A stretch of 64,000 bases of DNA from a virus (IMGVR_UViG_3300045012_000053:1-64000); one strand, 5' to 3'. Shown: positions 5,391-51,072, counted from the stretch's first letter. Notes: generated by a model not told the origin, from the sequence alone. Numbers and translations: made by a program.

Positions 5391-5959
5391 CGCTGCTTCT
5401 CCTTATTGTAATTTCTTATTAAGGTGCGAATTCGTACATCACTCATTCTCTGAAAAATTCCTTCGACTACATTACAGGCGTTGTGTGTAAATCCTAGAAC
5501 TTTGCCTGTTTCATGAGAGTGATGCAGGGTTGGTCTCGTCGAGGATATCCAATCTAATTCTCCGCCGCAAAGAACACAAATTCTGCTCTCATAGAATTTT
5601 AATACTTGTTCCGCAGTCGCTTTCGGCTCAGCATATCTTTGTATTTTGGAGTGCGCTTTAATATCGCGCAATAGTCGCTTCGCCCAACCGAGAGGTGAGC
5701 ATAATTGACATTGGTAGCGACGGGCATCATGTTCACAAATACCGCCGCCATTACATTGCCCACAACGATACCACTCACGATTATGCTGGCACATAGACTG
5801 CCCATGTTTGTTATATTTCTTAGACGCATACTTTTTACGCAATCGTTCACCGTTCATTTCGCGTTTTTGCCTGCGCTCAGCACGTCTTGTACGCTCTTCG
5901 CTAATAAGGCGTTTGCGATGTTTCTTATAATATCGTTTATTGTACTCTCTAGTTGTCAT
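5387..5959 (-). CDS. His-Me finger (HNH/EndoVII-like) endonuclease inserted in the polymerase gene
   Basis: CxH..CxxC repeats; CVLCG...LHHSHETGKVLGFTHNACN; ATGA overlaps at both ends. Confidence 0.8.
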   Translation of the reverse strand: MTTREYNKRYYKKHRKRLISEERTRRAERRQKREMNGERLRKKYASKKYNKHGQSMCQHNREWYRCGQCNGGGICEHDARRYQCQLCSPLGWAKRLLRDIKAHSKIQRYAEPKATAEQVLKFYESRICVLCGGELDWISSTRPTLHHSHETGKVLGFTHNACNVVEGIFQRMSDVRIRTLIRNYNKEKQR

Positions 5960-35931: not shown

Positions 35932-36006
35932 CCCCTGATAGCTGAGACAGATTAGCACCACTCTGAAAAAGTGGAGACGAGGACGCGAGCACCTCTCTCG
36001 GGACCA
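35932..36006 (+). tRNA. tRNA-Phe(GAA), degenerate T arm
   Basis: CCACT-CTGAAAA-AGTGG; ACCA; no TTC in T loop. Confidence 0.7.
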
Positions 36007-36011
36007 AATTT

Positions 36012-36200
36012 ATGCCAAATGATTACTCAGTACCGCGCGCAGCACGCAAGCTGCCCGAGTCAGACAAGAAGACGCTGACACCAAAGTATTTGTTGCAGCA
36101 TGAGAATCACTTCGACCCGAACGTGTACACGCCGGAAGCGATTGAACCGCGCACGGGTAGTTTCGCTGGAACGAAGAGTCCAGATATTTCTAAAACTTAA
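36012..36200 (+). CDS. Small hypothetical protein
   Basis: Fills the gap between two tRNAs. Confidence 0.45.
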   Translation: MPNDYSVPRAARKLPESDKKTLTPKYLLQHENHFDPNVYTPEAIEPRTGSFAGTKSPDISKT

Positions 36201-36208
36201 TTTTCTGT

Positions 36209-36284
36209 TGGACGATGGTGTAACTGGAAACACGGCTGACTTTGAATCAGTAAGATGAAGGTCCGAATCCTTCTCATCCAACCA
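36209..36284 (+). tRNA. tRNA-Gln(TTG)
   Basis: GCTGA-CTTTGAA-TCAGT; ACCA. Confidence 0.9.
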
Positions 36285-36314
36285 GTTTAATCTTCGGGGT
36301 TGCTCCCGAAGATA

Positions 36315-36358
36315 GATGGGGAGAGCCTATACTCTCCCCGTCGCTCTTATAGGAGAGT
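36315..36358 (+). promoter_or_regulatory. Kissing-loop leader motif, copy 1
   Basis: Loop CCTATA complementary to loop TATAGG; overlaps RBS of HNH 36359. Confidence 0.75.
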
Positions 36359-36796
36359 ATGATGAAGATATGCAATATTTGCAAGGAACGCGAAAGTCTT
36401 CCTTACGGTTATAAATGTCGAGTATGTCATTGTGAGTATCAAAAAGCATACCACAAGAATCACCCACAAAGCATAGCGAAGTCTCACAAGGCTAGACAAA
36501 AGCATCGCAGAGATTTAATTAAAGAGCGTAAGAATGCGCCTTGTTTTGATTGCGGAGTGCGCTATCCTTGGTATGTGATGGATTTTGACCATGTGCGGGG
36601 CGAGAAGAAATTCAATTTATCGATTGCAAGCAACAAGATGTTTAGTGTGGATGTAATTAACGAAGAGATTGAAAAGTGTGACTTGGTTTGTGCCAATTGT
36701 CACCGTATCAGGACTTTTACAAGAACTCAATTGCCCGATAGTGTAACTGGAAACACGCGTGGCTCTGAACCACGAAACTCTAGGTCCGAATCCTAG
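36359..36796 (+). CDS. HNH endonuclease (3' end runs into tRNA-Gln)
   Basis: CFDCG...MDFDHVRG...CDLVCANCHRIR. Confidence 0.9.
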   Translation: MMKICNICKERESLPYGYKCRVCHCEYQKAYHKNHPQSIAKSHKARQKHRRDLIKERKNAPCFDCGVRYPWYVMDFDHVRGEKKFNLSIASNKMFSVDVINEEIEKCDLVCANCHRIRTFTRTQLPDSVTGNTRGSEPRNSRSES

Positions 36797-36807
36797 TCAG
36801 GCAACCA
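36732..36807 (+). tRNA. tRNA-Gln(CTG)
   Basis: CGTGG-CTCTGAA-CCACG; ACCA. Confidence 0.9.
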
Positions 36808-36814
36808 ACTTTAC

Positions 36815-36842
36815 GCCTCGCAGACGCGAGGCTTTTTTATTT
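36815..36842 (+). terminator. Rho-independent terminator ending the tRNA array
   Basis: GCCTCGC-AGAC-GCGAGGC + T tract. Confidence 0.85.
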
Positions 36843-36853
36843 ACGGAGATAAC

Positions 36854-37231
36854 ATGGGCGTAGCAACACCAACAGCGATGTATTCGCAAAATAGTTCGCA
36901 ATCGAGTTTAACCGTTGCGGGCGCGTTCCCCCAAGTCACGCCTAACGGTGTCGCGAGTCAGAACCTTGATCTTCTACAGATCGTCGGACTCGGCGGCAGC
37001 GTTCTCTTGAACGTCGATAGCAATGGCACAGTTCATAACCCGGCAGTTGCCGCAACGAACGGCACCCGCATCGGTCAGTTTCAAACCAATCTTTCCAGCA
37101 GCGCAACCACCGCGCAGCTTTTCGCGAGCGCCTTCGCGAATCCTTCCCAGTTGGACATCCTCCAAGTTGTTAACCTCGGAGACAACGTCCACTATTACCT
37201 CGACTATCTAGGAGTAGCGCACGGCTCTTAA
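36854..37231 (+). CDS. Putative virion protein with internal repeat
   Basis: LDLLQIV...LDILQVV duplicated unit; GGAG RBS. Confidence 0.7.
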   Translation: MGVATPTAMYSQNSSQSSLTVAGAFPQVTPNGVASQNLDLLQIVGLGGSVLLNVDSNGTVHNPAVAATNGTRIGQFQTNLSSSATTAQLFASAFANPSQLDILQVVNLGDNVHYYLDYLGVAHGS

Positions 37232-37345
37232 TCCTGCGCTAAATCCTCGTGTGGCAACGTCGTTGTCCGCGTTGTGGTAGGGACCTTCGGAAGTTGAATC
37301 CGGCAGACGTCATCGTGTGTCTGTGCGGATGGATTTGGAGATGAA

Positions 37346-37582
37346 ATGGCAAATTTGAACAACCGTCAGAATCTGACGCCAGAAGAAGCAGCAAATGCTG
37401 TTGAAGTTTACAACAGCGCAGGCCGTCTCGATACAGTGAAAACAAATGCAGCGAACAACGACATTTTTCACGTGCGCAACGTAGTCATCGTTAACTTAGG
37501 CGGCGCTCTTGTAAAGGACGTACCAGCCACAGTAGTGAAGGCCAAGGCAGCGCGCGACAAGTTTTTATCGGACAACCGATAA
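37346..37582 (+). CDS. Hypothetical protein
   Basis: GGAG RBS. Confidence 0.65.
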   Translation: MANLNNRQNLTPEEAANAVEVYNSAGRLDTVKTNAANNDIFHVRNVVIVNLGGALVKDVPATVVKAKAARDKFLSDNR

Positions 37583-37594
37583 GCGGGAGATTTT

Positions 37595-37888
37595 ATGGCG
37601 AGTACGATCAGTGGTAACGTAGGCGGCGCGGCAGCATCAGGTGCGCAAGTCCAGTGTTTGAACATTGCGACTAAGGTGATTACTTACGGCGCTGGCGATG
37701 GTTCCGGTAACTACTCGATTCCCAGTCTCGCGGCTGGTACATACATCATCTCTGCATCCTTGAGCGCCAACGTTTACTACCACCCGGTTCAAGTTGTAGT
37801 GGACGGCGTAGCAACGTTCGCAGGAATCAATTTGAACCCGGTAGCGTTGAACGCGGCGAACGCGATTCAGCAAGCCACAAACTATTAA
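37595..37888 (+). CDS. Carboxypeptidase-regulatory-like (Ig/prealbumin fold) protein
   Basis: TISGNV...DGSGNYSIPSLAAGTYIISAS. Confidence 0.7.
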   Translation: MASTISGNVGGAAASGAQVQCLNIATKVITYGAGDGSGNYSIPSLAAGTYIISASLSANVYYHPVQVVVDGVATFAGINLNPVALNAANAIQQATNY

Positions 37889-37991
37889 AGACTTTTGGCA
37901 ATCCGTTCAGCACGTTCCAAGAACGGTTTCCAATAACAGCGTCTTCAAGGCGGTTCCCCGTCTCGAAGGCGTACACTAAAAGGAAAACACA

Positions 37992-38597
37992 ATGAGTAAC
38001 GTATTGGATTTTCAGGTATCCGGAGCATTCCCATCAAAGGTGGGCGGTCTCGGAACCACAGTTAAGTATTTCCCTCGTCCGATTGGTCCTTCCATCGGCG
38101 TGGCACCCTCGACCCCGTCTTCGACAAGCGCCATCGGCGCTCTGTTTCTCCCGGCACAGAACGTGTTTCAGGGACAGCAGATCAACGTCGTAGCGAGCGG
38201 TTTCTATGGTTCCGACACGGGCGACCCGTCGGGTACCGTAACCGTTCAGTTGTATGCGGTGACAGGTTCGTTGGCATCCCCGACGTACACCTCTCTCGCA
38301 ACAACGGGCGCGATCACTCCGTTCTTCGCGCAAGAGCCTTGGGGACTTAACGTAGAACTGATTGGCGCATCGAACGCGGGCGCAAACGGATTGCTGCTTG
38401 GTGCATACGAAGCATACATCCGTGGCTCTGTAACCGCTCCGACCACCGTGACCAACATCGTCACCGGGTTGGACTTCAACGCAGGTAACCCGGCGTTGCA
38501 GCAGGGCGCGGTGCTTGGCTTCGTTGTCGGCGTAACGTTCGGAACCACGGACGCGTCGAACAAAGCAGCCTTGTGCGAATTCACCATCGAGTCGTAA
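37992..38597 (+). CDS. Putative virion structural/decoration protein
   Basis: G/S/T-rich beta protein, strong RBS, downstream hairpin 38604-38629. Confidence 0.65.
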   Translation: MSNVLDFQVSGAFPSKVGGLGTTVKYFPRPIGPSIGVAPSTPSSTSAIGALFLPAQNVFQGQQINVVASGFYGSDTGDPSGTVTVQLYAVTGSLASPTYTSLATTGAITPFFAQEPWGLNVELIGASNAGANGLLLGAYEAYIRGSVTAPTTVTNIVTGLDFNAGNPALQQGAVLGFVVGVTFGTTDASNKAALCEFTIES

Positions 38598-38737
38598 TCA
38601 CCGGGGGCGAGCCTTTAGCGACTCGCCCCACTTCTTCCTAGTTGGCTGGGACACTCCCAAGAGAGTGACCACCACAGGCACGTGCGGAAACCACGGCACG
38701 CTGGGTAACAGCCCCGGCAAATTTTAAGGATATCACG

Positions 38738-39052
38738 ATGGACCCAGCAGCTCTTACGTTGGGACAGATTTCCTCGGCCCTCAGAGATTTTACTGTGGTA
38801 GGAGTTCTTTTAACTGTCGCGTGGAAGTCGCGCGGCATGTACGAATCGGCGAAGAACTTCTTTGAGCGATTGACGAAGCACATGGATAAGATGGAGAGTG
38901 GTATGGAAACTCTCTTGACTAACCATCTGTTCCATATCGAAAAAGAATTGAAAGTGATGGCTCGCCGACAGGTGAAGGCTATCGAGGTGTTGCAGGCTCA
39001 GTCTGATGTAATGACAGACGACGGCGCACCACCGCCAGTAATAGAGGCGTAA
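38738..39052 (+). CDS. Single-pass membrane protein (holin-like)
   Basis: Hydrophobic helix then coiled coil with NHLFHI. Confidence 0.55.
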   Translation: MDPAALTLGQISSALRDFTVVGVLLTVAWKSRGMYESAKNFFERLTKHMDKMESGMETLLTNHLFHIEKELKVMARRQVKAIEVLQAQSDVMTDDGAPPPVIEA

Positions 39053-39252
39053 TGCCAGCAGTATCGAAGAACCAGCGCATCGCGATGGCGATTGCGGAAC
39101 ATCATCCGGAAGACCTGAACGAGAAGAACAAGGGTCTGGCGGATATGTCGCACAAGCAGCTGCACGAGTTTGCTGCCACACCGGAGAAGGGTCTTCCGGC
39201 ACACGTTCACAAGAAGGCATCGTATCAAGCTGCTCGCGCAGCAAGGAAGTAG
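39052..39252 (+). CDS. DUF3008-like protein
   Basis: MPAVSKNQRIAM...MSHKQLHEFAATPEKGLP. Confidence 0.7.
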   Translation: MPAVSKNQRIAMAIAEHHPEDLNEKNKGLADMSHKQLHEFAATPEKGLPAHVHKKASYQAARAARK

Positions 39253-39254
39253 TC

Positions 39255-39527
39255 ATGGAAAGCAACAGCAACCCAGAAGAGACACTCCGCAACGGCAGCA
39301 AGCCGACGGGCAATGGCGGTTTGAAGGCTCCCGGCAACAGCCAAGCCGCAGCCGTGAAGACGACTTCGGACGGCGGCTCGAACCTTGAGTCTCTACGTCA
39401 AGGCAGCATTCCGAAGCCGGAAGGCGTAAAGGAAGTTTCCTACGATCAGGCTTGCCTAGCGAAGGCTCGTGCGCTCTACAACGAGACCACACACGACGCG
39501 AATCGCGCGAATAACGACAAAGAATAA
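39255..39527 (+). CDS. Hypothetical protein
   Basis: Operon packing. Confidence 0.55.
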   Translation: MESNSNPEETLRNGSKPTGNGGLKAPGNSQAAAVKTTSDGGSNLESLRQGSIPKPEGVKEVSYDQACLAKARALYNETTHDANRANNDKE

Positions 39528-39535
39528 TTCAACCT

Positions 39536-39674
39536 TGGACTGGTGACGCAGAAGAACTCTTCGCCATCAGGAACCCGAAGAGCGGAACCCGGGAATCATA
39601 CCGGGATGGTTGAGTGCCATCTTCCTAAGCCCCCACTCAGGGGTGTAGAAGAGCATGCGTCATCAGTGGTTCCA
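39536..39674 (+). ncRNA. Unclassified multi-branch RNA with complementary loops
   Basis: Closing stem CTGGTGACGCA/TGCGTCATCAG; four hairpins; loops TGAGTG and CACTCA. Confidence 0.55.
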
Positions 39675-39697
39675 GCAAATTTTGTGCACAATCGGTC

Positions 39698-39740
39698 GGG
39701 CGTGCCACTAACACGCCCTCCTACTCTTTAGTGGAGAGTA
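39698..39740 (+). promoter_or_regulatory. Kissing-loop leader motif, copy 2
   Basis: Loop CCACTAA complementary to loop TTAGTGG; overlaps RBS of EndoVII 39743. Confidence 0.75.
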
Positions 39741-39742
39741 TC

Positions 39743-40102
39743 ATGACTTTAAGTTTACGTGAGCGCAATAATCTTGCGGCTCAAAAGTATCGGAAAAATC
39801 ATCCCGAGAGAAGGCGTTTTATTCAAGCGCCCAAACGTGGAACAACCAAAGCACAAGCTGACGCCAAACTTTTGGAGCAAGAGAATAAGTGTGCGATTTG
39901 TGAAGAAATTTTTATAAAGACGCCCCACATTGACCACGACCACGTAACAAATCAATTTAGAGGGCTACTGTGTAGAGCCTGCAATCACATGCTAGGCAAT
40001 GCACGAGATAGCATCACTGTTTTACAAAGTGCAGTTGTGTATTTGAAAAAGTATGGAGCCTACAATGGTAAAGAAGCACCCATTCAGCCACACGGTGGTT
40101 GA
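39743..40102 (+). CDS. Endonuclease VII-family homing endonuclease
   Basis: CAIC...HIDHDHVTNQFRGLLCRACN. Confidence 0.9.
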   Translation: MTLSLRERNNLAAQKYRKNHPERRRFIQAPKRGTTKAQADAKLLEQENKCAICEEIFIKTPHIDHDHVTNQFRGLLCRACNHMLGNARDSITVLQSAVVYLKKYGAYNGKEAPIQPHGG

Positions 40103-40352
40103 ACATCACAGAGATGGTTCTCACACCATTCATCACATCCACGAAAAGCACGGACATATCCACAGCGTTCCGAAGCGTGACGGCGATGTGCGTGGCGCTG
40201 CGGGCGATCACGATGGGATGCTGGACCACGTTATGGACCACACCTCTCAAATGAACCCGGGCGAAGGCCACGACGAAAACAACGAAGCGCTTGCGGCAGC
40301 AGGTCCGGCGGCAGCAGCCCCGGCGGCAGCGGCGGCACCTCAAGGGGCCTAA
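40065..40352 (+). CDS. His-rich hypothetical protein
   Basis: HTVVEHHRDGSHTIHHIHEKHGHIH; GGAG RBS. Confidence 0.65.
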   Translation: MVKKHPFSHTVVEHHRDGSHTIHHIHEKHGHIHSVPKRDGDVRGAAGDHDGMLDHVMDHTSQMNPGEGHDENNEALAAAGPAAAAPAAAAAPQGA

Positions 40353-40353
40353 A

Positions 40354-40536
40354 ATGGCAACTTCCTTTTACCGCTCGATGCACCACCTTCGTAAGGGCGG
40401 ACTGCACGACGCGCTACACATCCCGAGAGACGAGAAGATTCCAGCAGAGCGTCTAGCCTCGGCGAAGAAATCTCCCAATGCTCATGTGAAGAAGATGGCT
40501 GTGATGGCCGATAACATGAAGCACTGGAATCACTAA
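40354..40536 (+). CDS. Small basic phage protein
   Basis: KGGLHDALHIPRDEKIP. Confidence 0.65.
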   Translation: MATSFYRSMHHLRKGGLHDALHIPRDEKIPAERLASAKKSPNAHVKKMAVMADNMKHWNH

Positions 40537-40814
40537 TGAACTTCGGTCCAGCGAAGCAGTTCTTGAAGGCTGCGTTCAGCGACAACGGTACTCCTAGCAG
40601 CTCCCGTTTGTTGACGGTGCCTCATAGCATCGCTGCGATCTTTGTTCTCGTTTATCTTACCATCCACACAGGACACTATCCGGGTATGGATGAGGCAACA
40701 GGGTTGGGCGCGTTCGCTACGGCGCACTATGCGATCAACCGCGTCAGCAATATGTTCGGCGGGCAGAAGAACGCCGCACCTCCTCCGGTTCCACCAGTAC
40801 CACCACAGATTTAA
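40536..40814 (+). CDS. Two-pass membrane protein (holin-like)
   Basis: SDNGTPSSSRL + two hydrophobic segments. Confidence 0.55.
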   Translation: MNFGPAKQFLKAAFSDNGTPSSSRLLTVPHSIAAIFVLVYLTIHTGHYPGMDEATGLGAFATAHYAINRVSNMFGGQKNAAPPPVPPVPPQI

Positions 40815-40888
40815 CGCGGAGCAAGGGGTCCTTCGGGAACCGCGTACGCGCGATGGTGCCTTGCCAAGGGTCGCCCGTGGATAACAAC

Positions 40889-41764
40889 ATGAAACTGTTC
40901 CTCGCAGCAGCGTTAGTGATCGCGTCGCTGTTTGCAGTTCCAACTCCTGCCAAGGAGGCGAAGCCTGATTTAGCGAAGGCGACGCTGCTCGTCTACCAAG
41001 GCAAACAGGTCTGCAAGTATCACGAGGAAGCGTTCTTCATTTTCGAGGAACAAGTCTGGGGCTGTGAGTTCAAGTCGAATTTCACCTGCACCGCTACGGT
41101 AGTGGGAGAGTCAGGACACGAGTACATCGGACTGACAGCGGGACACTGCTTCGATTGGAACGCGGTGGACAAAAACGAATACTATGTCGCTGACAAGCTG
41201 GACGAGAAACCAGTCCTACACAAGATTAAGATCGTCAAGTTCGAGAACGACGAGCGCTACGATTACGGCGTCTTCACGTTCGAATCGCTGGAACGCTACG
41301 ACGTCATGCCAATCGCGGACAACGTCGACCCCAAGGTGGGCGACGAAGTTCTCAACATCAACTATTCGCTCGGCCTCACGCAGCAGGTTACGGTCGGAAA
41401 GATAGAGAGCGGCATCATCGAATCTCCTGCTATGGAGCAGCTGAAAGACACCAAGGGCAGATTCCTCGCGTCCATCAATGGCGGTCCCGGCGCGTCCGGT
41501 TCCGCAGTCGTGGACAAGAAGAGCGGACAGATCATCGGCTTGTTGGAGGGACACTTCCCCAACACGCGCATGGGTATGATCGTCATGCCTACAGGCCAGA
41601 AGCTAAAGAATTTTCTGCAAGACGACTCGGCTGGGCTTCGTCCTCAAAAGGCGGGTCCTCTTCCGAAGCCGCACGTGGCACCGAAACCGCCAGCTCCAAC
41701 GTTCTGGGAACTGGTACAAGAGCTGATTCGCCGCATCCTTCATAAGATCGGCATTAGAGGATAA
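40889..41764 (+). CDS. Trypsin-like serine protease with signal peptide
   Basis: LTAGHC, YDYG, GPGASGSAV triad. Confidence 0.85.
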   Translation: MKLFLAAALVIASLFAVPTPAKEAKPDLAKATLLVYQGKQVCKYHEEAFFIFEEQVWGCEFKSNFTCTATVVGESGHEYIGLTAGHCFDWNAVDKNEYYVADKLDEKPVLHKIKIVKFENDERYDYGVFTFESLERYDVMPIADNVDPKVGDEVLNINYSLGLTQQVTVGKIESGIIESPAMEQLKDTKGRFLASINGGPGASGSAVVDKKSGQIIGLLEGHFPNTRMGMIVMPTGQKLKNFLQDDSAGLRPQKAGPLPKPHVAPKPPAPTFWELVQELIRRILHKIGIRG

Positions 41765-41765
41765 C

Positions 41766-42032
41766 ATGGCATCAGATTTCGTATCCAACGCGCTAGCGAG
41801 CGCACACAAGTATATGGACGCCGAGAAGAAATCGAGCGTCGGAACCAAGAGCGACTTCGCTCCGAAGGCGGCATCGAAGCCTCAAGCGGAATCGAGCGAC
41901 TATGCTCACGCGAGAGCGGCCCGTAAGCCGGGCGGCTCGTTCATGGGCGTGGAAGCGAGCGAAGATCGTGGCAAGGAACTAAAATCGGCGCAAGAACAGC
42001 ACGACACCAATGTGAAGGCGCTGGACCAGTAA
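41766..42032 (+). CDS. Hypothetical protein
   Basis: GAGG RBS. Confidence 0.6.
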   Translation: MASDFVSNALASAHKYMDAEKKSSVGTKSDFAPKAASKPQAESSDYAHARAARKPGGSFMGVEASEDRGKELKSAQEQHDTNVKALDQ

Positions 42033-42053
42033 CACCCTAATAGGAGTTCGACC

Positions 42054-44357
42054 GTGGCACTTACCGACGCACAGAGACAGGCAAATAGCAGAGCAAGAAA
42101 GAAGGGACTACCTGAACCTTACAGCGCAGCAGAATCGAAGGCACAAGCGGAGGCGCACGCGGCAAAGGAATCAAGACTCGTAGAACTGTTGGAAGAAGTT
42201 GCGGCCCACGACAGAGAAGGAAAGAGATACAAGAGCGAGGCCCGCAGCTATACGAAGTTGGTGCGTCTGTATTACGGTCAACCTGAGAATGGAGATGCCG
42301 ATGACGATGAGACCAGCGACGGCAAGACCGCCAAAAAGCCGAAAGGCCCGAAGCGTCCCAACCCATCAGAGACTCGTATACGAATTCAAAACTCCGACGC
42401 TGCTCCCTTGGAGCCAGTTAAGGGTAAATCCCGCAAGCGCGCAATCGAAGACATCACCTACGAAGTAGATGATATCGTCGGTTTCTGGCGCTGGCTCGAT
42501 CTGCGAGATCGCGCGCGAAAAGATTTGTATTGGCTCTGCCGACTACTCGGGCTGGGCGTGTACCGCGACGTGCACCAGATCACCTGCGACCAGTTCGTGC
42601 AGAAGAACTTCGGCGGACCTTGGCTGAATCGGGACGGCACGGTAGATCGTGAACGCACCCCGCTTGAGCCGATGTACTTTGAAGGCTACACGCTGGACGA
42701 TTTTCACGAGATGATCGATGCGCAAGAGCGTTTTGATGCGCAAGGTCGCTCGACAAAAGAAATGATGCTGCTCGACTCTCGTGGCTTTTACAAGTCAACG
42801 ATTGACGGAGTAGACTCGGTTCAATGGCTGCTGAACTGCCCTGATATCCGCGTGCTCATCATCACTGGTGAGTACAAGCTGGCGCTGTCGTTCATGCTTG
42901 AAATCAAGGGCTACTTCTTTGCAGCGGAAGGCCAAGACTTTACCTCGTTCCAGCTATTGTTTCCCGAGTACGCGCTGTACGGCGTGGATGGGACTTCGAA
43001 GGAACCGCTATTCTCTCCCGCTCGTATCCTGACACAACGTCAAGGCTCGATCTGGGTGAACTCAATCGTTGCGAACGTATCCGGTTGGCACTGCGACATC
43101 AAGAAGGGTGACGATGTTGTCACCAACGCGAACTCGAACACGGAAGACACGAAAGAGAAGCTAAAGAAAGATTACAACGGCACCGATGACTTGCTCGACC
43201 CGCACGGGTTTAGCGATCACATAGGCACCCGTTACTTCACCGACGACTGGTACGGCACGCGTCTCACGCCTCAAGACGGAGAGAGCGAGATCGCGCCGAT
43301 CAAGTACCACTGTCGCGGATGCTGGGAAGTTAGACCGGAATACGCAGAAGTTCCGATCATGCGCCTCACCGAAGAGATGGTGAAGCTGACGTTCCCGCAG
43401 AAGTGGACCTTTGCGAAGTTGCACCGTTTGCTCTTAAAGAAGGGCGAGCGCGACTTCCGCAACCAGCAGCTCAACGAGCCTACGGACGCCGCAGAAGACA
43501 GCGGCTTCAAGGTCAGCTTCACGGAGCATGACTTACGCGCGCACAGCTATCAGCGCGAGGCCGCGCCGAAGGCTGGAGACGTTTACATTACGTGGGACTG
43601 GGCGCTCTCGGACAAGAAGACATCAGACTACTCGGTCGGCGTCGTGGCTCGTTTGTACAAGAACGACATGAACGAGTGGGCGTTCGTAATTCTCGAAGTC
43701 ATATACGACAAGTGGAAGTACTCGGAACTCGCTTTTCAGATCGTGGCGCTCTCGAAGCGCTGGGGTCCGAAGGTCACCATGATCGAAGCGTCCAACGCTT
43801 TCGATCTTTTGAGAGACGAGATCACACGAGTCGGCCAGCGTCAAGGCTACCAGCCGTACATATACTGGAAGCAGCCATCGCGGGAAGAGAATGCGAAACG
43901 AAACCGAATTAAATCGTTGGAAATCCTTTTAGCGGAGCACCGTTTGCACTTCGTGCTCGGCCCGTGGATTGACGAAACGTTCAAACAGTTCACCCAGTAC
44001 ACAGGCGAGAAGAAGAACAAAGGCCGCAAGGAAGATATCCCGGACGCCATCTCATACATGACGTATATTCTCCCGGCGGAAGCTCGACCAATCATCGACA
44101 AGATCGACCCGGAAGAAGAGAAGAGACTGGCAGAGGAACGAGACAAGCAGTTTTTGAAAGTGCGCCACTACGAAGCGTACTTTGGACAGAGAGTTAGAAC
44201 GAAAGAAGAAGGCGGAAACCTTCCCGCTCCGACGTGGCGACAGTGGTCGCGTGGAGACTCGGGCGAGGTAAAACCGCCGGAGCCAGAGCCAGAACCGCCA
44301 AAGCCGCAGGACCCGAGAATGAAAATCTTCGGCAATAAAGGGCCTTGGCGCTTGTAA
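42054..44357 (+). CDS. terL: Terminase large subunit
   Basis: SRGFYKST, GWHCDIKKGDD, IGTRYFTDD, TWDWA...DYSV, EDIPDA; precedes portal. Confidence 0.88.
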   Translation: MALTDAQRQANSRARKKGLPEPYSAAESKAQAEAHAAKESRLVELLEEVAAHDREGKRYKSEARSYTKLVRLYYGQPENGDADDDETSDGKTAKKPKGPKRPNPSETRIRIQNSDAAPLEPVKGKSRKRAIEDITYEVDDIVGFWRWLDLRDRARKDLYWLCRLLGLGVYRDVHQITCDQFVQKNFGGPWLNRDGTVDRERTPLEPMYFEGYTLDDFHEMIDAQERFDAQGRSTKEMMLLDSRGFYKSTIDGVDSVQWLLNCPDIRVLIITGEYKLALSFMLEIKGYFFAAEGQDFTSFQLLFPEYALYGVDGTSKEPLFSPARILTQRQGSIWVNSIVANVSGWHCDIKKGDDVVTNANSNTEDTKEKLKKDYNGTDDLLDPHGFSDHIGTRYFTDDWYGTRLTPQDGESEIAPIKYHCRGCWEVRPEYAEVPIMRLTEEMVKLTFPQKWTFAKLHRLLLKKGERDFRNQQLNEPTDAAEDSGFKVSFTEHDLRAHSYQREAAPKAGDVYITWDWALSDKKTSDYSVGVVARLYKNDMNEWAFVILEVIYDKWKYSELAFQIVALSKRWGPKVTMIEASNAFDLLRDEITRVGQRQGYQPYIYWKQPSREENAKRNRIKSLEILLAEHRLHFVLGPWIDETFKQFTQYTGEKKNKGRKEDIPDAISYMTYILPAEARPIIDKIDPEEEKRLAEERDKQFLKVRHYEAYFGQRVRTKEEGGNLPAPTWRQWSRGDSGEVKPPEPEPEPPKPQDPRMKIFGNKGPWRL

Positions 44358-44375
44358 TAATGAGGACATGACAGC

Positions 44376-46487
44376 ATGGCGGACATCGACGTAGCAGTAG
44401 CCAACTTGGAACAGGTGCCAGCAGCTGAGATCACGACGGACAATACCTACGTGGACTCGGAGACTGGGACGATTCAGTTCAATGATACTGCGGCTATCAA
44501 ACTTGTGCTCGACAGCGCGGAGATAGCGGACAATTTCATCAACATTAATCAGTGGGCCAGCGGTTGGACAATGTCCGACTTGCTATACCAGTCGCCGATG
44601 TCTACCAGCGACGGAGGCTCCGGCAGCACAGACGTAGCGAACTCGGCGGTGCCGAAGTTCATGGTCTCGAACCACATCAGTTCGATTGTTCCGAAGATCA
44701 TGGGCGGCATCTTCTACGAAGACCCGTGCTTCCTGCTTCGTCCGGCCCCGAACACAGATCAGGACGTGATCGCCGCGAAGACCGCGCTGTTCACGTTTCA
44801 GCTCAAGGCTATGCGCTTTGAGGAACAGATCGAACTTGGGCTGGAGCAGATGGCGCTGCTTGGCACTGCTATCTGGAAGTGGGGCTACACCGAGTACGAA
44901 AAGACCGAGAAGAAGTACAAGCGCTATGCGCCCAAGGTTAATGTGCCGGATGGTCTAGAGACCGCGCCGATTGACACGCCGGACTCCGACGACTTCGAGA
45001 TCGAGTTCTACAAGAAGACAGTCTCTCACCCGTGGTTGAAGTTCTGCGACATCCGTACAGTCCTAGTGGACCCGGGATGCCGCGTGGGCGACATCCGTAC
45101 AGCCAAGTGGGTTGTGTGGCGCGACTACGCTACTTACGATGATTTGGAAAAGCTTCGCGGGATGGAAGGTTACGAGATTCCTAGCGAGGCAATTCTTCGC
45201 TCGATGTTTGCGAAGGCCACTTCTCCGGGACCTGACAACATTACGATGACCATCCCGGAAGGGATGATGGGTTATTTGCAGCACTCGAAGCCGAGAAGCT
45301 ACAAGACTTCGGCGGACCCAAACAAGGCTCCGCTGGAAGTGTTGGAGTATTGGGACAACGACAAGGTTATCGTTGTGCTCATCTACAACGGCCACAACAT
45401 TTTGATTCGCAACGAAGCCAATCCGTTTGGAAAGATTCCTTTCTACTCGGCAAACTGGCGCAACATTCCTGACTCGTTCTACGGGCAGGGACTGGGCTTG
45501 CTAATCGGTAGCGAGCAGATCGTAGAGCAGGGTGTAACCAACCTCGCGCTCGACCTGCTGGCGTACTGCTTGCAGCCTGTCGCGCTTCGTAAGAAGGGCT
45601 TCAATGCACCGACACAGAACACGCGATGGGAGCAGGGCGGCATCATCGACGTCGAAGAGGACGTTGACAAGGCCTTCAAGTTCCTGCAAATGCCTCCTGT
45701 GCCTGCGGAAGCGTTCAGCTTCATCCAGCAGTCACAGAGCGCGGGCGCATCCACGTCGGGCGCGAACGAGCAGGTGGTGCAGGGCGCGGGACACGCGGGT
45801 ATCAGCACGACGGGTATGAGAAGCGGCACGGGCGCGGCGGCTGTTATTCAAGCCAACGCATCTCGTCTCGACGGTCCTACCGGACGTTTCGTGCGCCAAG
45901 TTTTCGAACCGTGGCTCTTTCAGATGGATGATCTCGACAACGACCTGTTGCCGACTAGCGTCATCAAGGATATCCTCGGCGAGAAGATGGGCAACGACTT
46001 CAAGGTCGACCACATCGAAATGCGTAACGCGAAGGTCGAATATGAAGTGCTCGCGGGCAGCAGCCTAGGTGCCAAGAAAGAAATGGCACAGGCTCTTCCG
46101 ATCATGATTCAGTTGTTGAACAACCCGACGTTCACTGCAAACGCGAACGACGCCGGATATCAGTTCGACGCGGTCGCCATCTTCCAAGCGTTCGTGGACG
46201 CGGCTGGTTGGAAGTTCAGCCAGAAGTTCTTACGCGAGATGACACCGGACGAGAAGAAGAAGCACGACGCGAACAGCCCAGCGGCTATCGCGGCGGCGCA
46301 GCAGGCATCAGCGCAGAAGATGCAGCAGGACAAGTTCCAACAGGAACAGGTTCTGGAAAACCAGAAGCAGCTCGGCAAGGCGGGTAACGAAGCCTTCCGC
46401 TCTTCTATCGAAAAGTCAACCGCCCCGCCGTTGCTGGGCACAGGCCCGGACCAGACACAAGGGTTCGGCGCAACAGACTCTCTATAA
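44376..46487 (+). CDS. Portal protein
   Basis: 703 aa after terminase; GTAIWKWGY, NPFGKIPF, SFYGQG; Gln-rich C-terminus. Confidence 0.85.
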   Translation: MADIDVAVANLEQVPAAEITTDNTYVDSETGTIQFNDTAAIKLVLDSAEIADNFININQWASGWTMSDLLYQSPMSTSDGGSGSTDVANSAVPKFMVSNHISSIVPKIMGGIFYEDPCFLLRPAPNTDQDVIAAKTALFTFQLKAMRFEEQIELGLEQMALLGTAIWKWGYTEYEKTEKKYKRYAPKVNVPDGLETAPIDTPDSDDFEIEFYKKTVSHPWLKFCDIRTVLVDPGCRVGDIRTAKWVVWRDYATYDDLEKLRGMEGYEIPSEAILRSMFAKATSPGPDNITMTIPEGMMGYLQHSKPRSYKTSADPNKAPLEVLEYWDNDKVIVVLIYNGHNILIRNEANPFGKIPFYSANWRNIPDSFYGQGLGLLIGSEQIVEQGVTNLALDLLAYCLQPVALRKKGFNAPTQNTRWEQGGIIDVEEDVDKAFKFLQMPPVPAEAFSFIQQSQSAGASTSGANEQVVQGAGHAGISTTGMRSGTGAAAVIQANASRLDGPTGRFVRQVFEPWLFQMDDLDNDLLPTSVIKDILGEKMGNDFKVDHIEMRNAKVEYEVLAGSSLGAKKEMAQALPIMIQLLNNPTFTANANDAGYQFDAVAIFQAFVDAAGWKFSQKFLREMTPDEKKKHDANSPAAIAAAQQASAQKMQQDKFQQEQVLENQKQLGKAGNEAFRSSIEKSTAPPLLGTGPDQTQGFGATDSL

Positions 46488-46529
46488 TCCGGATGGGGCC
46501 GCAAGGCCCCGTACCGACAGGATGGACCA

Positions 46530-46895
46530 ATGTCAGAGGAACGTAAAGTGTTGGGGGAAACCCTGACGTTTGAAGAGCGCTTGTCGCTCGCACAACTCGT
46601 GAATCAGCCGGGATGGAAGATTCTTGTTCGCTTGATGGCAGAGTCATGCCGCCGCGCGACTGAGGAAGTCATGAAGCTGAACCCGAGTGCGGAGCGTTAT
46701 CCAGAACTGCTGGTAGGAATGCAGACCACGGCTCGCGCGATGCACAAGTTCTCCGCTGAGGTGCTTGACTCCGTCAAGTTGCACCAGCGCACAGCAGTAT
46801 CGGAAGCACAGCAGAGAGAAAATCCTCAGCCCGTTTTAGAGGGCGTGAAGAACCGTTTTCGTCTGCCCATAAATCCCCCCGAGGGGAAGCAGTAA
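46530..46895 (+). CDS. Small head-morphogenesis protein
   Basis: LVNQPGWKIL helix, between portal and scaffold. Confidence 0.6.
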   Translation: MSEERKVLGETLTFEERLSLAQLVNQPGWKILVRLMAESCRRATEEVMKLNPSAERYPELLVGMQTTARAMHKFSAEVLDSVKLHQRTAVSEAQQRENPQPVLEGVKNRFRLPINPPEGKQ

Positions 46896-46916
46896 CAATC
46901 AAATACAGAGGACCAA

Positions 46917-48218
46917 ATGGCTATTACAAAGGAAGCAGTGCTGCTCATGGACTTGAAGTCCATCTTCGCAGCCGTGAAAGACCCCGCTACCTCGAAAGAG
47001 ATGCAGAACATTATTCGAGACCGTCAGGTTGCGTCTCGTATTTCGGAGTTGATGCTGGAAGCTCAGAACCGCGAGGCCGAAGTCGATGCGCAGATCGCGC
47101 GCGTCGTTCCTCCCACCACAGAAGAGCTGGCAGCGCAGGCCGCAGTGATGGCAGCAGAGCCAGCCGCAGTCGTGGCCCCCGCCACTCCCGTCGCGCCCGT
47201 CGTCGAACCTGTAGTTGACACAACTCTGTCGACCAAGGAAGAAGACGAGGCCTACAAAAAGGTAGGCGTAACAATCGTTCGAGACGCCAAGGGCGTCCCA
47301 ACCCGCTACATCCAAGACTACCAAGTCCGCGATGAGAAGGGGCAGGCGATTGGTCGTCCGACGCATTTGGAAGCGCGCACGCTACCCGACCTGATTTTGA
47401 AGAAGCAGGAAGCGCACGAGAGCGCGACCCGCGCTTTTCATCGCATGAAGATGCAGAACCTGACCTTCAAGCAGAGCAAAACAATTTTGACGCCGGAACA
47501 AATCTCGGAAGCAGCGAGACTAGCATTGGAGTCCAAGGACCCGGCGAAGGTCACCGAAGTTATTAGCGAGGTGATCGAGAGCCAGTATCAGCAGCGCGAG
47601 AAGGATTTGAAGGCGAAGGAGTGGCGAGAAGAAGGACGCGCCATCGCCAACGAATTCATGCGCCGCCATTTGCACGACTACAACCCGTGCGATGCCAACC
47701 AGAAAGAGCTTGGTGTTTATCTTTCTGAACATAATCTTGAGTTTACCGTGGACAACCTAGAGTTCGCACTTGCGGACCTCTTGGAACAAGGTGACAAGCT
47801 TGTCAAGGTGGAAAACACCGGGACAACGAAACATGCGGTTGAGGTCGCTAATCCGACCACACCCGCTACTGTAGCAGCCTCCGCAGCTCCGGCAATCCCG
47901 GTCGTGGACCCAGCCGCCGCAGTACCAACAGAACCAACACAGCCCGCAGCGCCTAGTCAGCCTGTGGCAGAGATAACGGTAACGACGCCTGCCGCCGCAC
48001 CCAATGTGCAACCAGCGGCCCGTCGTCCGGGAGTGAATGGGAGCCTACCTCCGGGTACGTTGAGCGCACAACGTCCGGGAGCACAAGACCCAGCACTCGC
48101 AAGGAAGGAATTCCTACAGTCAGTAAAGAAAATGGACCCGGAAACAATGAAGAAGAAGTTGAAGACGGACCCTCAATTCGTCAAGACTTTGCTATCTTAC
48201 GGGATTCGTATTCAGTAA
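46917..48218 (+). CDS. Putative scaffolding protein
   Basis: Helical with Ala/Pro linkers, directly before capsid gene. Confidence 0.65.
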   Translation: MAITKEAVLLMDLKSIFAAVKDPATSKEMQNIIRDRQVASRISELMLEAQNREAEVDAQIARVVPPTTEELAAQAAVMAAEPAAVVAPATPVAPVVEPVVDTTLSTKEEDEAYKKVGVTIVRDAKGVPTRYIQDYQVRDEKGQAIGRPTHLEARTLPDLILKKQEAHESATRAFHRMKMQNLTFKQSKTILTPEQISEAARLALESKDPAKVTEVISEVIESQYQQREKDLKAKEWREEGRAIANEFMRRHLHDYNPCDANQKELGVYLSEHNLEFTVDNLEFALADLLEQGDKLVKVENTGTTKHAVEVANPTTPATVAASAAPAIPVVDPAAAVPTEPTQPAAPSQPVAEITVTTPAAAPNVQPAARRPGVNGSLPPGTLSAQRPGAQDPALARKEFLQSVKKMDPETMKKKLKTDPQFVKTLLSYGIRIQ

Positions 48219-48260
48219 CTGGCACCCCGCACAGCGGGAGCAAAAGACTAGAGCAACACC

Positions 48261-49286
48261 ATGAGCGGACCAAATCCCTCAGCATCAAACGTAGCAAACG
48301 TCCTGACAGCACAGGCAATCATTTTCGACAAGGAACTGATTCCGAACTTGAAGGGCAACACCAACGCATTCGTTGGCGCGGCAGAACGTCGTGTTCAGGG
48401 CCTTCACATGGGCGTGAACCGTACGTTCTTCCAGTACAACACACTTTCGGGTGACGTTGTGCAGAACTCCGATGGTACCGTGGGCAACCCGGAAACCATC
48501 ACTCAGTTGTCGTCTCCGGCACAGATCGGAGAATGGAACAACTACAGCAACTTCTCATCGTTCGCTATCGCAGCGGCGATTGACGAGCTTGTTGGCAACA
48601 GCGCAGTCGAACTTGGCTACCAAGCCGGGCAGTCGATCAGCGAGTTGTACAGCGCAGTTGCAGACAGCGCATCTGGTGTGGACGCAAACGTCAACCAGTC
48701 GTCGTTGCTTGCATCTCCGTACACCATTGACTTGGGCACCATCCGTGAATTGAAGCAGCAGCTTGTTTCAAAGAACGTATTGCCTTGCAAGCGTGGCATG
48801 TTCTTGGGCGCAATCAGCCCGAACGTGTTGGGTGACATCTACAACGCAACGACAGTGAACAACTCTATCGTTGACTTGTGGAAGTACGAAAACATGGAGA
48901 AGTTTGATGCAATGGCAGGCAGCGACCAGAACAAGGTCATTGTCCTACCGGGCACCAACATCGGCTTCATGCAGACCCCGTTCGTAACCACAACGGCCAA
49001 CTACAACGGCTCGGGTAAGATCGGATACCGCACATATGTTTTTGGCAATTATGCCATGATCGGTGTCTGGCTTCAAGTGCCGGGAGACACTGATCTTGAT
49101 GAAGGCGATTGGAAGACCATCGATTGCCGCGTCGTGACAGATGCCCCTGCATCCAGCTTTGACCCTGTCTCAACAATTGGTGGGTGGTGCAGCTATAAGT
49201 TCCACCAGACAGTTACGTTGCCACCAGCAACTGGCGCGAATACCCAGCGTATTCGCTACATTGACTCGGTTCCGGCAATTCAGTAA
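48261..49286 (+). CDS. Major capsid protein (HK97 fold, N4-gp56-like)
   Basis: 341 aa; FAIAAAIDE, AISPNVLGDI, YRTYVFG, FDP..IGGWCSYK; synteny. Confidence 0.85.
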   Translation: MSGPNPSASNVANVLTAQAIIFDKELIPNLKGNTNAFVGAAERRVQGLHMGVNRTFFQYNTLSGDVVQNSDGTVGNPETITQLSSPAQIGEWNNYSNFSSFAIAAAIDELVGNSAVELGYQAGQSISELYSAVADSASGVDANVNQSSLLASPYTIDLGTIRELKQQLVSKNVLPCKRGMFLGAISPNVLGDIYNATTVNNSIVDLWKYENMEKFDAMAGSDQNKVIVLPGTNIGFMQTPFVTTTANYNGSGKIGYRTYVFGNYAMIGVWLQVPGDTDLDEGDWKTIDCRVVTDAPASSFDPVSTIGGWCSYKFHQTVTLPPATGANTQRIRYIDSVPAIQ

Positions 49287-49294
49287 ATATTCCT

Positions 49295-49323
49295 CTTGAC
49301 ACAGGTTGCAACTTGTGTTAAGA
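49295..49323 (+). promoter_or_regulatory. Sigma70-type promoter with palindromic spacer
   Basis: TTGACA-17-TAAGAT; ACACAGGTTGCAACTTGTGT. Confidence 0.75.
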
Positions 49324-49327
49324 TGCA

Positions 49328-49380
49328 GATTGGGGGTGTGTGCCCAAACACACGCCCCTAATCAACTCTTTTGGGAGAGT
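49328..49380 (+). promoter_or_regulatory. Kissing-loop leader motif, copy 3
   Basis: Loop CCCAAA complementary to loop TTTGGG; overlaps RBS of EndoVII 49386. Confidence 0.75.
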
Positions 49381-49385
49381 ATAAA

Positions 49386-49751
49386 GTGAAAACATCGACT
49401 TTGAAAGTTCGTCAATGGCGTGAGAAAAATACAGAACGTAATCGAAACAATGGCCGTCGCTGGTTTGAGAAAAACAGGCAATATGATAGGCTACGTCGAC
49501 ACAGTCTCACACAAGAACAATACGACGCAAAGATGCAAGAGCAAGATAGTCGTTGCGCTGTCTGCTATAAAGAATTCACAGGAACGCCGCACGTTGACCA
49601 TAATCACAGATGCTGCCCAATACGAAGAAGTTGTGTCAAATGCCGACGCGGCCTTCTCTGTGAAGATTGTAATCTAGGCCTCGGCAGATTCAAAGACTCA
49701 ATAGAAGTTCTCAGCAACGCAATCGAATATCTCAAAGGATACAAACAATGA
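49386..49751 (+). CDS. Endonuclease VII-family homing endonuclease
   Basis: CAVC...HVDHNHRCC...RGLLCEDCNLGLG. Confidence 0.9.
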   Translation: MKTSTLKVRQWREKNTERNRNNGRRWFEKNRQYDRLRRHSLTQEQYDAKMQEQDSRCAVCYKEFTGTPHVDHNHRCCPIRRSCVKCRRGLLCEDCNLGLGRFKDSIEVLSNAIEYLKGYKQ

Positions 49752-50440
49752 CCATTCATCAGCCGGGCCAGCCCTTCATCAAAGGCACGGATGTCGAGAA
49801 TCCGTTCAACGAACGACACGACATAGACGCTACACATGAAGCGATTCAACAGATGCTCGCGGGCGGCACGCCGAACTGGGTGAAGTGGCCGCACGAGTAT
49901 AAGTCATACGTTAAAGAGTCATTCGCCGCCGAGAAAGAAATCTCGAACAAGATGGCAGCGGCGTACAAGTGGGACGATCAGGAGAACCTCACGAACGAGG
50001 CCGCTCGTCACATCAATCGAACCACCACAAGAGATTTTTTGAAGAAGTTAAACGATAACGGCATTAAGACGGCGATCTTCGATAACGGCTGGGTAGGACC
50101 CGGCGGCATTCCGACGGTCGGATTGTTTTGTGTTCCCCCCTCGAATCCGCGCAAGCTTCGTCCTGTTTGCTACATGGATGTGCCCGCGATGTGGGAGTGG
50201 AGCGTTCTCCTTCTAGACAGCCACGGCATCCCGAACGGGGAGAAGTCGCGCGGATGGCGCACCATAGCGATTCAGCTCGTCGAGAAAGAGATCATCACCG
50301 AACAAGAGTGCCACAAAATTTTTGGGGTACCATCACCCAATGCAGTATCCGCCAGATATTTCCGCAGTCTTTGGGAGAAGCGTAACGGCAAACGTTACAT
50401 GGATATCGAAGATCAGGAAAGTCTCGGACAATCTGCCTGA
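49748..50440 (+). CDS. Hypothetical protein
   Basis: 230-aa ORF in the late operon. Confidence 0.75.
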   Translation: MTIHQPGQPFIKGTDVENPFNERHDIDATHEAIQQMLAGGTPNWVKWPHEYKSYVKESFAAEKEISNKMAAAYKWDDQENLTNEAARHINRTTTRDFLKKLNDNGIKTAIFDNGWVGPGGIPTVGLFCVPPSNPRKLRPVCYMDVPAMWEWSVLLLDSHGIPNGEKSRGWRTIAIQLVEKEIITEQECHKIFGVPSPNAVSARYFRSLWEKRNGKRYMDIEDQESLGQSA

Positions 50441-50493
50441 CCCCGGGCTAGTACAGGGCGGTTGAAGAAGTTTGCCAACCTTGAAGGTGTAAA

Positions 50494-51072
50494 ATGACGA
50501 ACCAGAATCAGAAGCCTGCGGCCACTGAAGTTGATGTGAACGCAGTGCTAGCAGAAGCACAAAAGACCGGAAATCTTTCCGAGTCTAAGTTCATGGCACT
50601 TCTCAGCATCATGATGGCGAAGGAAGCCCGCATCGCTGAAAAGGAAGCGGCGCTTGAAGTTGCTTTGAAGGCGCGCGACGACCAGCGCAGAAAAGAGTCG
50701 GAGAATTACACGGTCAGCAAGATCGAAACCCAGAAGGCTTGCAAGCACTTGAAGGGCGGCAAGGGACGCACCCGTGGTCAGCAGCGCGACCCGGCGGTCT
50801 ACAGCCACGTCTTCACCGATGGCACCCGAGTCATCAAGTGTCAGCTGTGTGGAGCGCGTTGGCTTCCGGGCGACACCGACGAGTACTTGACACGCAATGG
50901 GAGCAAGATTCCTAACTGGACGAACATCGGTTGGGGTCGAGCACAAGAGATGTGCGAAGACAGCAGCAACAAGCCGTCGTCTTCGGAGCGTTTCGGCGGT
51001 TCACAGTTTGGTTCCAACGTCTCAGACGTTGACAAGGCCAAGACCGCAGCGATCAAGAACCTACAGATTTAA
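50494..51072 (+). CDS. Hypothetical zinc-binding protein
   Basis: CKHLKG...CQLCG. Confidence 0.75.
   Translation: MTNQNQKPAATEVDVNAVLAEAQKTGNLSESKFMALLSIMMAKEARIAEKEAALEVALKARDDQRRKESENYTVSKIETQKACKHLKGGKGRTRGQQRDPAVYSHVFTDGTRVIKCQLCGARWLPGDTDEYLTRNGSKIPNWTNIGWGRAQEMCEDSSNKPSSSERFGGSQFGSNVSDVDKAKTAAIKNLQI

Follow-up and report, generated by a model that had tools for sequence, protein, structure and literature searches.

A two-hairpin RNA leader with complementary, covarying loops precedes mobile nuclease genes of uncultured soil phages

We describe an RNA leader located upstream of three nuclease genes in a 64,000-nt stretch of DNA (IMGVR_UViG_3300045012_000053:1-64000, hereafter the window) from an uncultured soil phage whose complete genome spans 101,360 bp with direct terminal repeats. 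The leader, 45-60 nt long, features two neighbouring hairpins, H1 and H2, with exactly complementary loops, the second of which holds part of the Shine-Dalgarno (SD) sequence of the nuclease gene. It represents a large RNA family that is in no catalogue; computation establishes its structure, covariation and strand, and ties it to nuclease genes and to the insertion of these genes. The reading that we favour, and consider moderately probable, is that this leader would act as a translational brake of nuclease cassettes via two alternating folds.

A homing endonuclease gene has to be expressed in a way that spares its carrier phage, and the rules of this expression have so far been learnt almost entirely from T4. 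In uncultured soil phages, a single compact RNA module is common to at least five unrelated nuclease families, and its more than 100 natural variants display a loop-loop helix of 6-7 bp that varies freely and stays perfectly complementary.

Leader anatomy and selected loop pairing

The three copies of the window, all on the plus strand, share one layout: the G+C-rich hairpin H1 comes first and is separated by 0-3 nt from the short hairpin H2, which a start codon follows after 0-5 nt. H2 reads (A/G)CTCT...AGAGT, and its loop L1' is the exact reverse complement of the 6- or 7-nt loop L1 of H1. In all three copies, the SD sequence GGAG spans the boundary between L1' and the 3' strand of H2, with two bases on each side.

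In copy 1, H1 (36315-36342, 11 bp including one G-U, loop CCTATA at 36326-36331) is joined with no linker (0 nt) to H2 (36343-36358, GCTCT/AGAGT), whose loop TATAGG (36348-36353) is the exact complement of L1; the GGAG, as read from the sequence, lies at 36352-36355, with its GG in the loop-loop helix and its AG in the H2 stem. The gene that follows (36359-36796) encodes an HNH endonuclease of 145 aa (PHROG phrog_2255, E 5.6e-25); a Pfam search of this gene gave no match. Copy 2 comprises H1 (39698-39718, 7 bp, loop CCACTAA at 39705-39711), a linker of 3 nt, and H2 (39722-39740, TACTCT/AGAGTA, loop TTAGTGG at 39728-39734), with GGAG at 39733-39736, and precedes an Endonuclease VII-type gene of 119 aa (39743-40102; Pfam PF02945, E 8.8e-19; PHROG endonuclease VII). 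Copy 3 comprises H1 (49328-49363, 15 bp, loop CCCAAA at 49343-49348), in which an 11-bp G+C-rich core is prolonged by an outer extension GATT/AATC, a linker of 1 nt, and H2 (49365-49380, ACTCT/AGAGT, loop TTTGGG at 49370-49375), with GGAG at 49374-49377. It precedes a second Endonuclease VII-type gene, of 121 aa with a GTG start (49386-49751; Pfam PF02945, E 6.9e-19). The coordinates and sequences given in an earlier note on this DNA were all confirmed, and the two nuclease subtypes that it had distinguished were recovered, gene 1 being HNH according to PHROGs and genes 2 and 3 Endonuclease_7 according to Pfam.

The exact complementarity of the loops, on which the earlier note had built, was confirmed, and chance is excluded by pattern counts and by a scan of shuffled windows. 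The pattern CTCT-N6/7-AGAGTAT occurs three times in the window against 0.01 expected, and the three copies are its only occurrences in the whole 101,360-bp genome. When adjacent hairpins were scanned for loops of exact complementarity, the three copies and one unrelated plus-strand pair were retrieved, against about 0.2 per shuffled window; this fourth pair, at 39611, was rejected as a leader copy since it is part of a separate multi-branch RNA. In nested folding, H1 and H2 together constitute the minimum-energy structure (z -4.5, -2.1 and -6.1 for copies 1, 2 and 3, respectively). The SD sequence is base-paired in a stable predicted structure in all copies, and the nested fold of copies 1 and 3 is far more stable than that of shuffled sequences.

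A search for relatives demanding loop complementarity yielded about 60 further copies in 1.0 Mb of related contigs, among which the different loop pairs numbered more than 25 and the H2 stems covaried. As this search presupposed the complementarity, we ran two tests that did not. The first relied on a covariance model, of the sort proposed in the earlier note; this model, R1, describes the H1 and H2 stems only, with no term for the loop-loop helix. Applied to 1.08 Mb of related soil-phage contigs, R1 identified 76 copies at E < 1e-3, all on the coding strand (E 3.8e-7 for copy 1 and 2.4e-12 for copy 2), and the distinct matches that were not seeds all had 6-7 complementary loop bases (5/5). 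In 15 further records searched with R1, the loops were fully complementary in 55 of the 56 fetched matches; together with the three of the window, these 55 make 58 copies that carry 38 different loops. Genomes harbor 0-6 copies, all on one strand (19 records).

An unbiased estimate was obtained with a pattern in which the conserved flanks were fixed and the three central bases of both loops left free. In IMG/VR, this pattern matched 72 distinct sequences, for an estimated one or two by chance, and the free triplets were complementary at all three positions in 70 of them, with 18 triplets used; the two non-complementary matches have no H1 stem. In bacterial and archaeal genomes (596 Gb), 13 matches to this pattern were obtained, nine of which score 0-2 of 3 and four 3 of 3; three of these four have a full H1 stem and lie on likely viral contigs of metagenome bins, one of them labelled Acidobacteria. 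A first IMG/VR scan with a 14-base pattern returned mostly chance matches and, among the matches listed, one extra true copy (L074). Eight distant loci of relatives of the copy-2 EndoVII gene, two of them on contigs larger than 360 kb, gave no R1 match.

Across the family, H1 consists of an 8-bp G+C-rich core, mostly with a weaker outer extension of 3-6 bp, capped by a CC-NNN-AA loop, and H2 of 4-6 bp capped by a UU-NNN-GG loop that is exactly complementary to that of H1. The H1 loop and the 5' strand of H2 can thus together pair 10-13 consecutive bases of the strand bearing the SD sequence, UUNNNGG-AGAG. The H2 stem covaries (CTCT/AGAG, ATCT/AGAT, GTTCT/AGAAC, CCCCT/AGGGG), and each central loop-loop pair displays three to four Watson-Crick types with no G-U. 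The complementarity seen in the window is hence kept in homologs, with strong compensatory change. Pair counts reveal G-U pairs in H1; together with the fixed orientation before start codons, they indicate that the structure is read on the coding strand as RNA and not as DNA.

The leader, which the earlier note had not recognised as a described family, matches no existing Rfam family, whether at gathering or at permissive thresholds. At gathering thresholds, Rfam models matched tRNAs only, and at E up to 10 the three loci gave no match on the strand of the motif; a Termite-leu match on the opposite strand was discarded as noise (24.8 bits for 51 needed). The model of the int-alpA RNA motif (RF02996) matched neither the whole genome at E up to 10 nor the three loci, and by this search the two-hairpin leader is not a detectable int-alpA member. 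In the literature, we found no paper joining kissing or loop-loop pairing with homing endonucleases and ribosome sites.

Association with nuclease cassettes

The open reading frames (ORFs) behind the leader belong, according to Pfam, to Endonuclease_7 (24/49 and 18/58) or to GIY-YIG, mostly with NUMOD3 (10/49 and 18/58), and otherwise to HNH, PD-(D/E)XK, Vsr/DUF559 and AP2-type families. Near the portal gene, the leader is found on about 36 of 43 EndoVII-like ORFs and on 13 of 15 GIY-YIG ORFs, counts that include four copies missed by the strict scanner and read by eye. Identical loop sequences occur with different nuclease families.

The site downstream of the major head protein gene allows a direct comparison of occupied and empty states. 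In the window, the EndoVII gene of copy 3 is flanked by the major head protein gene (48261-49286) on one side and by the next structural gene (49748-50440) on the other. Occupied sites consist of a regulatory box, the leader and the nuclease ORF, whose 3' end carries the ribosome site used by the following gene. In ten relatives, the head protein gene and the next gene are separated by a nuclease-free gap of 71-157 nt, and these gaps contain a terminator-like hairpin only, with no leader. Since the leader is absent from nuclease-free sites, it belongs to the inserted cassette. On sequence grounds, the leader is part of free-standing cassettes of the homing-endonuclease type that are carried by one clade of ~100-kb soil phages as well as by some other phages. 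The claim that it travels with mobile nuclease genes was thus upheld, for at least five families; a universal presence upstream of the nuclease genes of this phage was not, as three EndoVII genes on the minus strand lack it.

The hairpins of the ten empty sites (L139, L145, L151, L152, L153, L156, L157, L178, L204 and L205) have GGGG...CCCC stems like H1, one of them having the stem GGGGAGAG/CTCTCCCC in common with copy 1, and their loops are self-complementary at the centre (TCGA, GTCGAC, TCGCGA, GATCGATC). H1 may derive from, or replace, the resident terminator.

Several other insertions were observed. The copy-1 cassette is placed between two tRNA genes, and the 3' end of its HNH ORF (36359-36796) enters the tRNA gene at 36732-36804 by about 65 nt, so that its last ~21 codons are tRNA sequence. 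An EndoVII-type gene on the minus strand (5387-5959) lies between two ORFs (5956-7164 and 4295-5329) that resemble the halves of a family A DNA polymerase; the stop of the upstream polA-like half and the start of the EndoVII-type gene overlap, and no kissing-loop leader precedes this gene. In three contigs (L147, L154, L159), a leaderless EndoVII-like ORF of 231 aa is located where the head protein match stops short N-terminally, which suggests that an insertion, possibly an intron, lies inside the head protein gene or next to it.

The sequences upstream of H1 are of three kinds, and the leader is the part common to all. The first, found in copy 3 and 22 others, is a sigma-70-like promoter with a GTTGCAAC palindrome in its spacer. 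In copy 3, this promoter (49296-49324) is composed of TTGACA (49296-49301), a 17-nt spacer and TAAGAT (49319-49324) with a TG; it scores 10 of 12 matches and ends 3 nt before H1. The earlier note had credited copy 3 with its own promoter, and this one is indeed the best sigma-70-like match in the 14.5 kb from 36000 to 50500. The spacer (window 49300-49319) is an inverted repeat centred on GTTGCAAC, at the same position in the 22 related leaders; this palindrome is common to cassettes with unrelated nucleases and looks like an operator. The second kind is a hairpin, H0, followed by a few bases: in copy 1, H0 (36290-36313, + strand, 10 bp with a loop of about 4 nt) lies between the 3' end of a tRNA and H1, and a similar hairpin precedes H1 in many relatives (types B and D). 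The third is a palindrome, TTGTAGCTACAA.

In 11 of the 23 promoter-type copies, 3 nt separate the end of the -10 box from the H1 extension, which is the commonest spacing, so the predicted start, about 7 nt downstream, would fall inside the outer H1 extension. Such a start would strip this extension only and retain the loop L1.

The window encodes 25 tRNA genes, a large terminase and a portal protein of the SU10/N4 type (Pfam). The only named relative is the Acidobacteriota phage Tunturi_3, formally Tunturiibacter phage Tunturi_3: its major head protein is 36% identical to that of the window, and its portal protein is the sole match of the window's portal among GenBank phages, also with 36% identity. 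A megablast of 36000-40200 against GenBank phages gave no match, and among the GenBank relatives searched no cultured phage carrying the leader was found. IMG/VR contains 78 contigs, from metagenome samples, with a portal 63-89% identical to that of the window. The window was also checked for an N4-like virion RNA polymerase that could explain the upstream hairpins, and no ORF above 1,253 aa was found within it.

Two further RNA elements were noticed. Directly upstream of copy 2, on the plus strand (39541-39676), lies a separate conserved RNA of about 135 nt, in which a 12-bp stem encloses three inner hairpins and the blocks GAAGAAC, CUUCCUAAGCC and CAGAAGAGCA are invariant; 19 of its 32 predicted pairs change on both sides among six homologs. 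In some members, two of the inner loops are complementary to each other (TGAGT/ACTCA here), whereas other members have GNRA-like tetraloops in their place; Rfam contains no match to this RNA. In five unrelated IMG/VR contigs (L038, L081, L097, L107, L117), a different leader features a long hairpin with CTCCCCC in a large loop, complementary to a GGGGGAG within a CTCT...AGAG hairpin just before the start codon, and this may be another design pairing a loop to a ribosome-binding site.

Geometry and possible modes of action

The dimensions of the leader make a simple kissing of its two hairpins within one molecule doubtful. H1 positions 9-13, where all six pair types occur, are paired in 62-73% of the copies but in 27-59% when slid controls are taken, and the extended H1 reaches 11-16 bp and touches H2. 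The linker is of 0-2 nt in 76 of 112 family members, in which H1 and H2 then total 14-20 bp. In the solved kissing complexes with fully paired loops of 6-7 nt (TAR-TAR*, ColE1 RNA I/II), the loop helix stands roughly coaxially between the stems, and the bases of the two stems lie 18-25 bp apart. A linker of 0-3 nt would not bridge this distance, which implies that all helices cannot coexist in one molecule. The earlier note had proposed kissing hairpins that mask the ribosome-binding site: the loop pairing stands, and kissing between two closed hairpins of one molecule is sterically doubtful, given linkers of 0, 3 and 1 nt in copies 1, 2 and 3. As all four helices covary and yet cannot coexist, either the fold alternates between two states or the pairing occurs in trans.

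We lean towards the first solution, on the grounds that H1 mostly abuts H2, which excludes the loop helix as long as all stems are closed. One fold would be a nested rod made of the extended H1 and H2; the other would be a pseudoknot combining the H1 core with the loop-loop helix, the 5' strand of H2 serving as crossing loop. In the loop-paired state, the whole UUNNNGG-AGAG strand would be double-stranded. Transcripts from the cassette promoter would start within the H1 extension and so lean towards the pseudoknot. Most likely, the leader would hold nuclease translation low by burying the SD sequence, as judged from the pairing of this sequence. Sequestration of the ribosome-binding site has precedents in T4 I-TevI, I-TevII, I-TevIII and segB, and in Aeh1 mobE; for I-TevI, segB and mobE, a brake has been rationalized by the location of the nuclease gene in a heavily transcribed late unit (PMC2988022). 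By analogy, a brake would make biological sense for a nuclease gene inside such a unit.

Several observations weigh against this two-state brake. At least half of the GGAG is paired in either proposed fold, and no state permitting translation is evident. The leader appears dispensable for such genes, since this genome has three more EndoVII genes, each on the minus strand, that lack it, and since no copy was found when the whole Tunturi_3 genome was searched with R1. The position of the transcription start is a prediction from the promoter. The steric argument is an extrapolation from known kissing complexes to the leader. Finally, the one soil metatranscriptome that matches does so for 13% of words, and its contigs span the head protein gene only.

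Alternatively, though we hold this to be unlikely, the complementary loops would be held apart on a rigid H1-H2 rod and pair only between molecules: a short transcript terminated at H1, or a second copy of the mRNA, would kiss the H2 loop of the full-length message. Under this scheme, RNA concentration would govern repression, with each loop pair as a private address. The long H1 and the 0-2-nt linker, which rule out cis pairing of closed hairpins in 76 of 112 members, agree with such an arrangement, as does the format of the loops, since fully pairing loops of 6-7 nt are those of antisense kissing (ColE1 RNA I/II). Termination at H1 can also be argued from copy 3, whose H1 is the top terminator-like match, followed by a pyrimidine- and U-rich tail, and from the GGGG...CCCC stems shared with the native terminators of empty sites. 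In the scan for intrinsic terminators, copy 3 H1 passes with the tail AACTCTTTTG, and copies 1 and 2 fail on the plus strand; the tails are pyrimidine-rich and not U runs. No loop occurs twice within one genome (16 genomes), but this uniqueness is not significant (0 shared pairs for 1.7 expected, P 0.17). Moreover, the short H1 transcript and the dimers are hypothetical, and cis partners would be favoured by proximity if the outer H1 pairs open.

An H1-like hairpin also occurs at 38604-38629 (+ strand), after the ORF 37992-38597; it is formed by GGGGCGAG...CTCGCCCC with a pyrimidine-rich tail, and no H2 follows. Its R1 match is weak (E 0.04), and it looks like an ordinary phage terminator.

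It is more improbable still that the element is mainly a signal of RNA processing or stability, namely an RNase III-type site, a terminator of the upstream gene or a 5' hairpin with a protective effect; in that case the ribosome-binding site would be paired only secondarily. RNase III needs roughly two helical turns, and the stacked H1 and H2 come near to this with 14-20 bp, or 21-27 bp with the loop helix; H1 also stands in for the native terminator after the head protein gene and is located at the predicted 5' end of promoter-initiated transcripts. This explanation would account neither for the second loop being the ribosome site nor for strict Watson-Crick loop pairs that always number 6-7 nt, and the element is tied to nuclease genes and not to operon boundaries in general.

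A signal in double-stranded or extruded DNA, such as a recombination or homing target or the site of a dimeric protein, would fit a set of inverted repeats, different nuclease ORFs behind one leader at one site, and the cutting of branched DNA by EndoVII-type enzymes, established for T4 endonuclease VII, but it is highly implausible given that the many G-U pairs of H1 are A-C mismatches on the opposite strand, that every copy is on the coding strand 3-8 nt before a start codon with a fixed GGAG position, and that crossed inverted repeats form no cruciform.

Significance and comparison with known systems

This work adds a new and well-supported structured RNA family to those available for catalogues, and supplies, from nature, a set of orthogonal kissing-loop pairs like those that RNA nanotechnology and synthetic riboregulators make use of. 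It also raises testable questions: whether the leader is a portable translation brake of selfish genes, and whether it works within one molecule, as a two-state switch, or between molecules.

The loops resemble those of ColE1 RNA I/RNA II and of TAR-TAR* in having 6-7 nt with every base Watson-Crick paired. The partners in those systems are separate RNAs, produced from opposite strands or designed, whereas the leader has both loops on a single strand at a distance of about 20 nt, with the ribosome site in one of them. If pairing in trans were true, each mobile nuclease gene would possess a private, programmable and concentration-dependent translational brake; we found no description of such a same-strand counterpart of antisense RNA for phage or bacterial messages in the literature searched. 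The phi29 pRNA, bicoid mRNA domain III and retroviral dimer initiation sites are cases of one RNA with loops that geometry bars from cis pairing, and the leader is like them in this respect. RNAs of the phi29 pRNA and bicoid type build packaging rings or transport particles, but nothing points there for the leader, in which trans pairing is putative.

The guanidine-II (mini-ykkC) riboswitch also features two tandem hairpins before a start codon, the second overlapping the SD region, with loops proposed to kiss (PMC7544219). Both systems thus place two small tandem hairpins with kissing-type loops at the ribosome site. In guanidine-II, conserved ACGR tetraloops bind guanidinium and form two pairs, and the linker measures 7-40 nt (PMC7544219); the loops described here are of 6-7 nt, variable and fully complementary, the linker is mostly of 0-2 nt, and no ligand pocket is evident.

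The leaders of T-even homing endonuclease genes (PMC2988022) are alike in several respects: a leader RNA before a mobile nuclease gene pairs the SD sequence, the gene lies within a late, highly transcribed unit, and the position of the promoter, a predicted one in the soil phages, makes transcripts initiated there differ from read-through transcripts on the 5' side of the structure. The predicted start in the soil phages would drop the outer H1 extension only, unlike the T-even leaders, in which the inhibitory partner is dropped. T-even structures are single nested hairpins specific to each gene, whereas the leader combines a crossed loop-loop helix with a modular two-hairpin design common to at least five nuclease families, and its ribosome site pairs with a hairpin loop bearing a free, covarying address. 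Sequestration of the ribosome-binding site in genes for homing endonucleases is of a known kind; what would be new, by this comparison, is its achievement via a modular and addressable loop-loop design.

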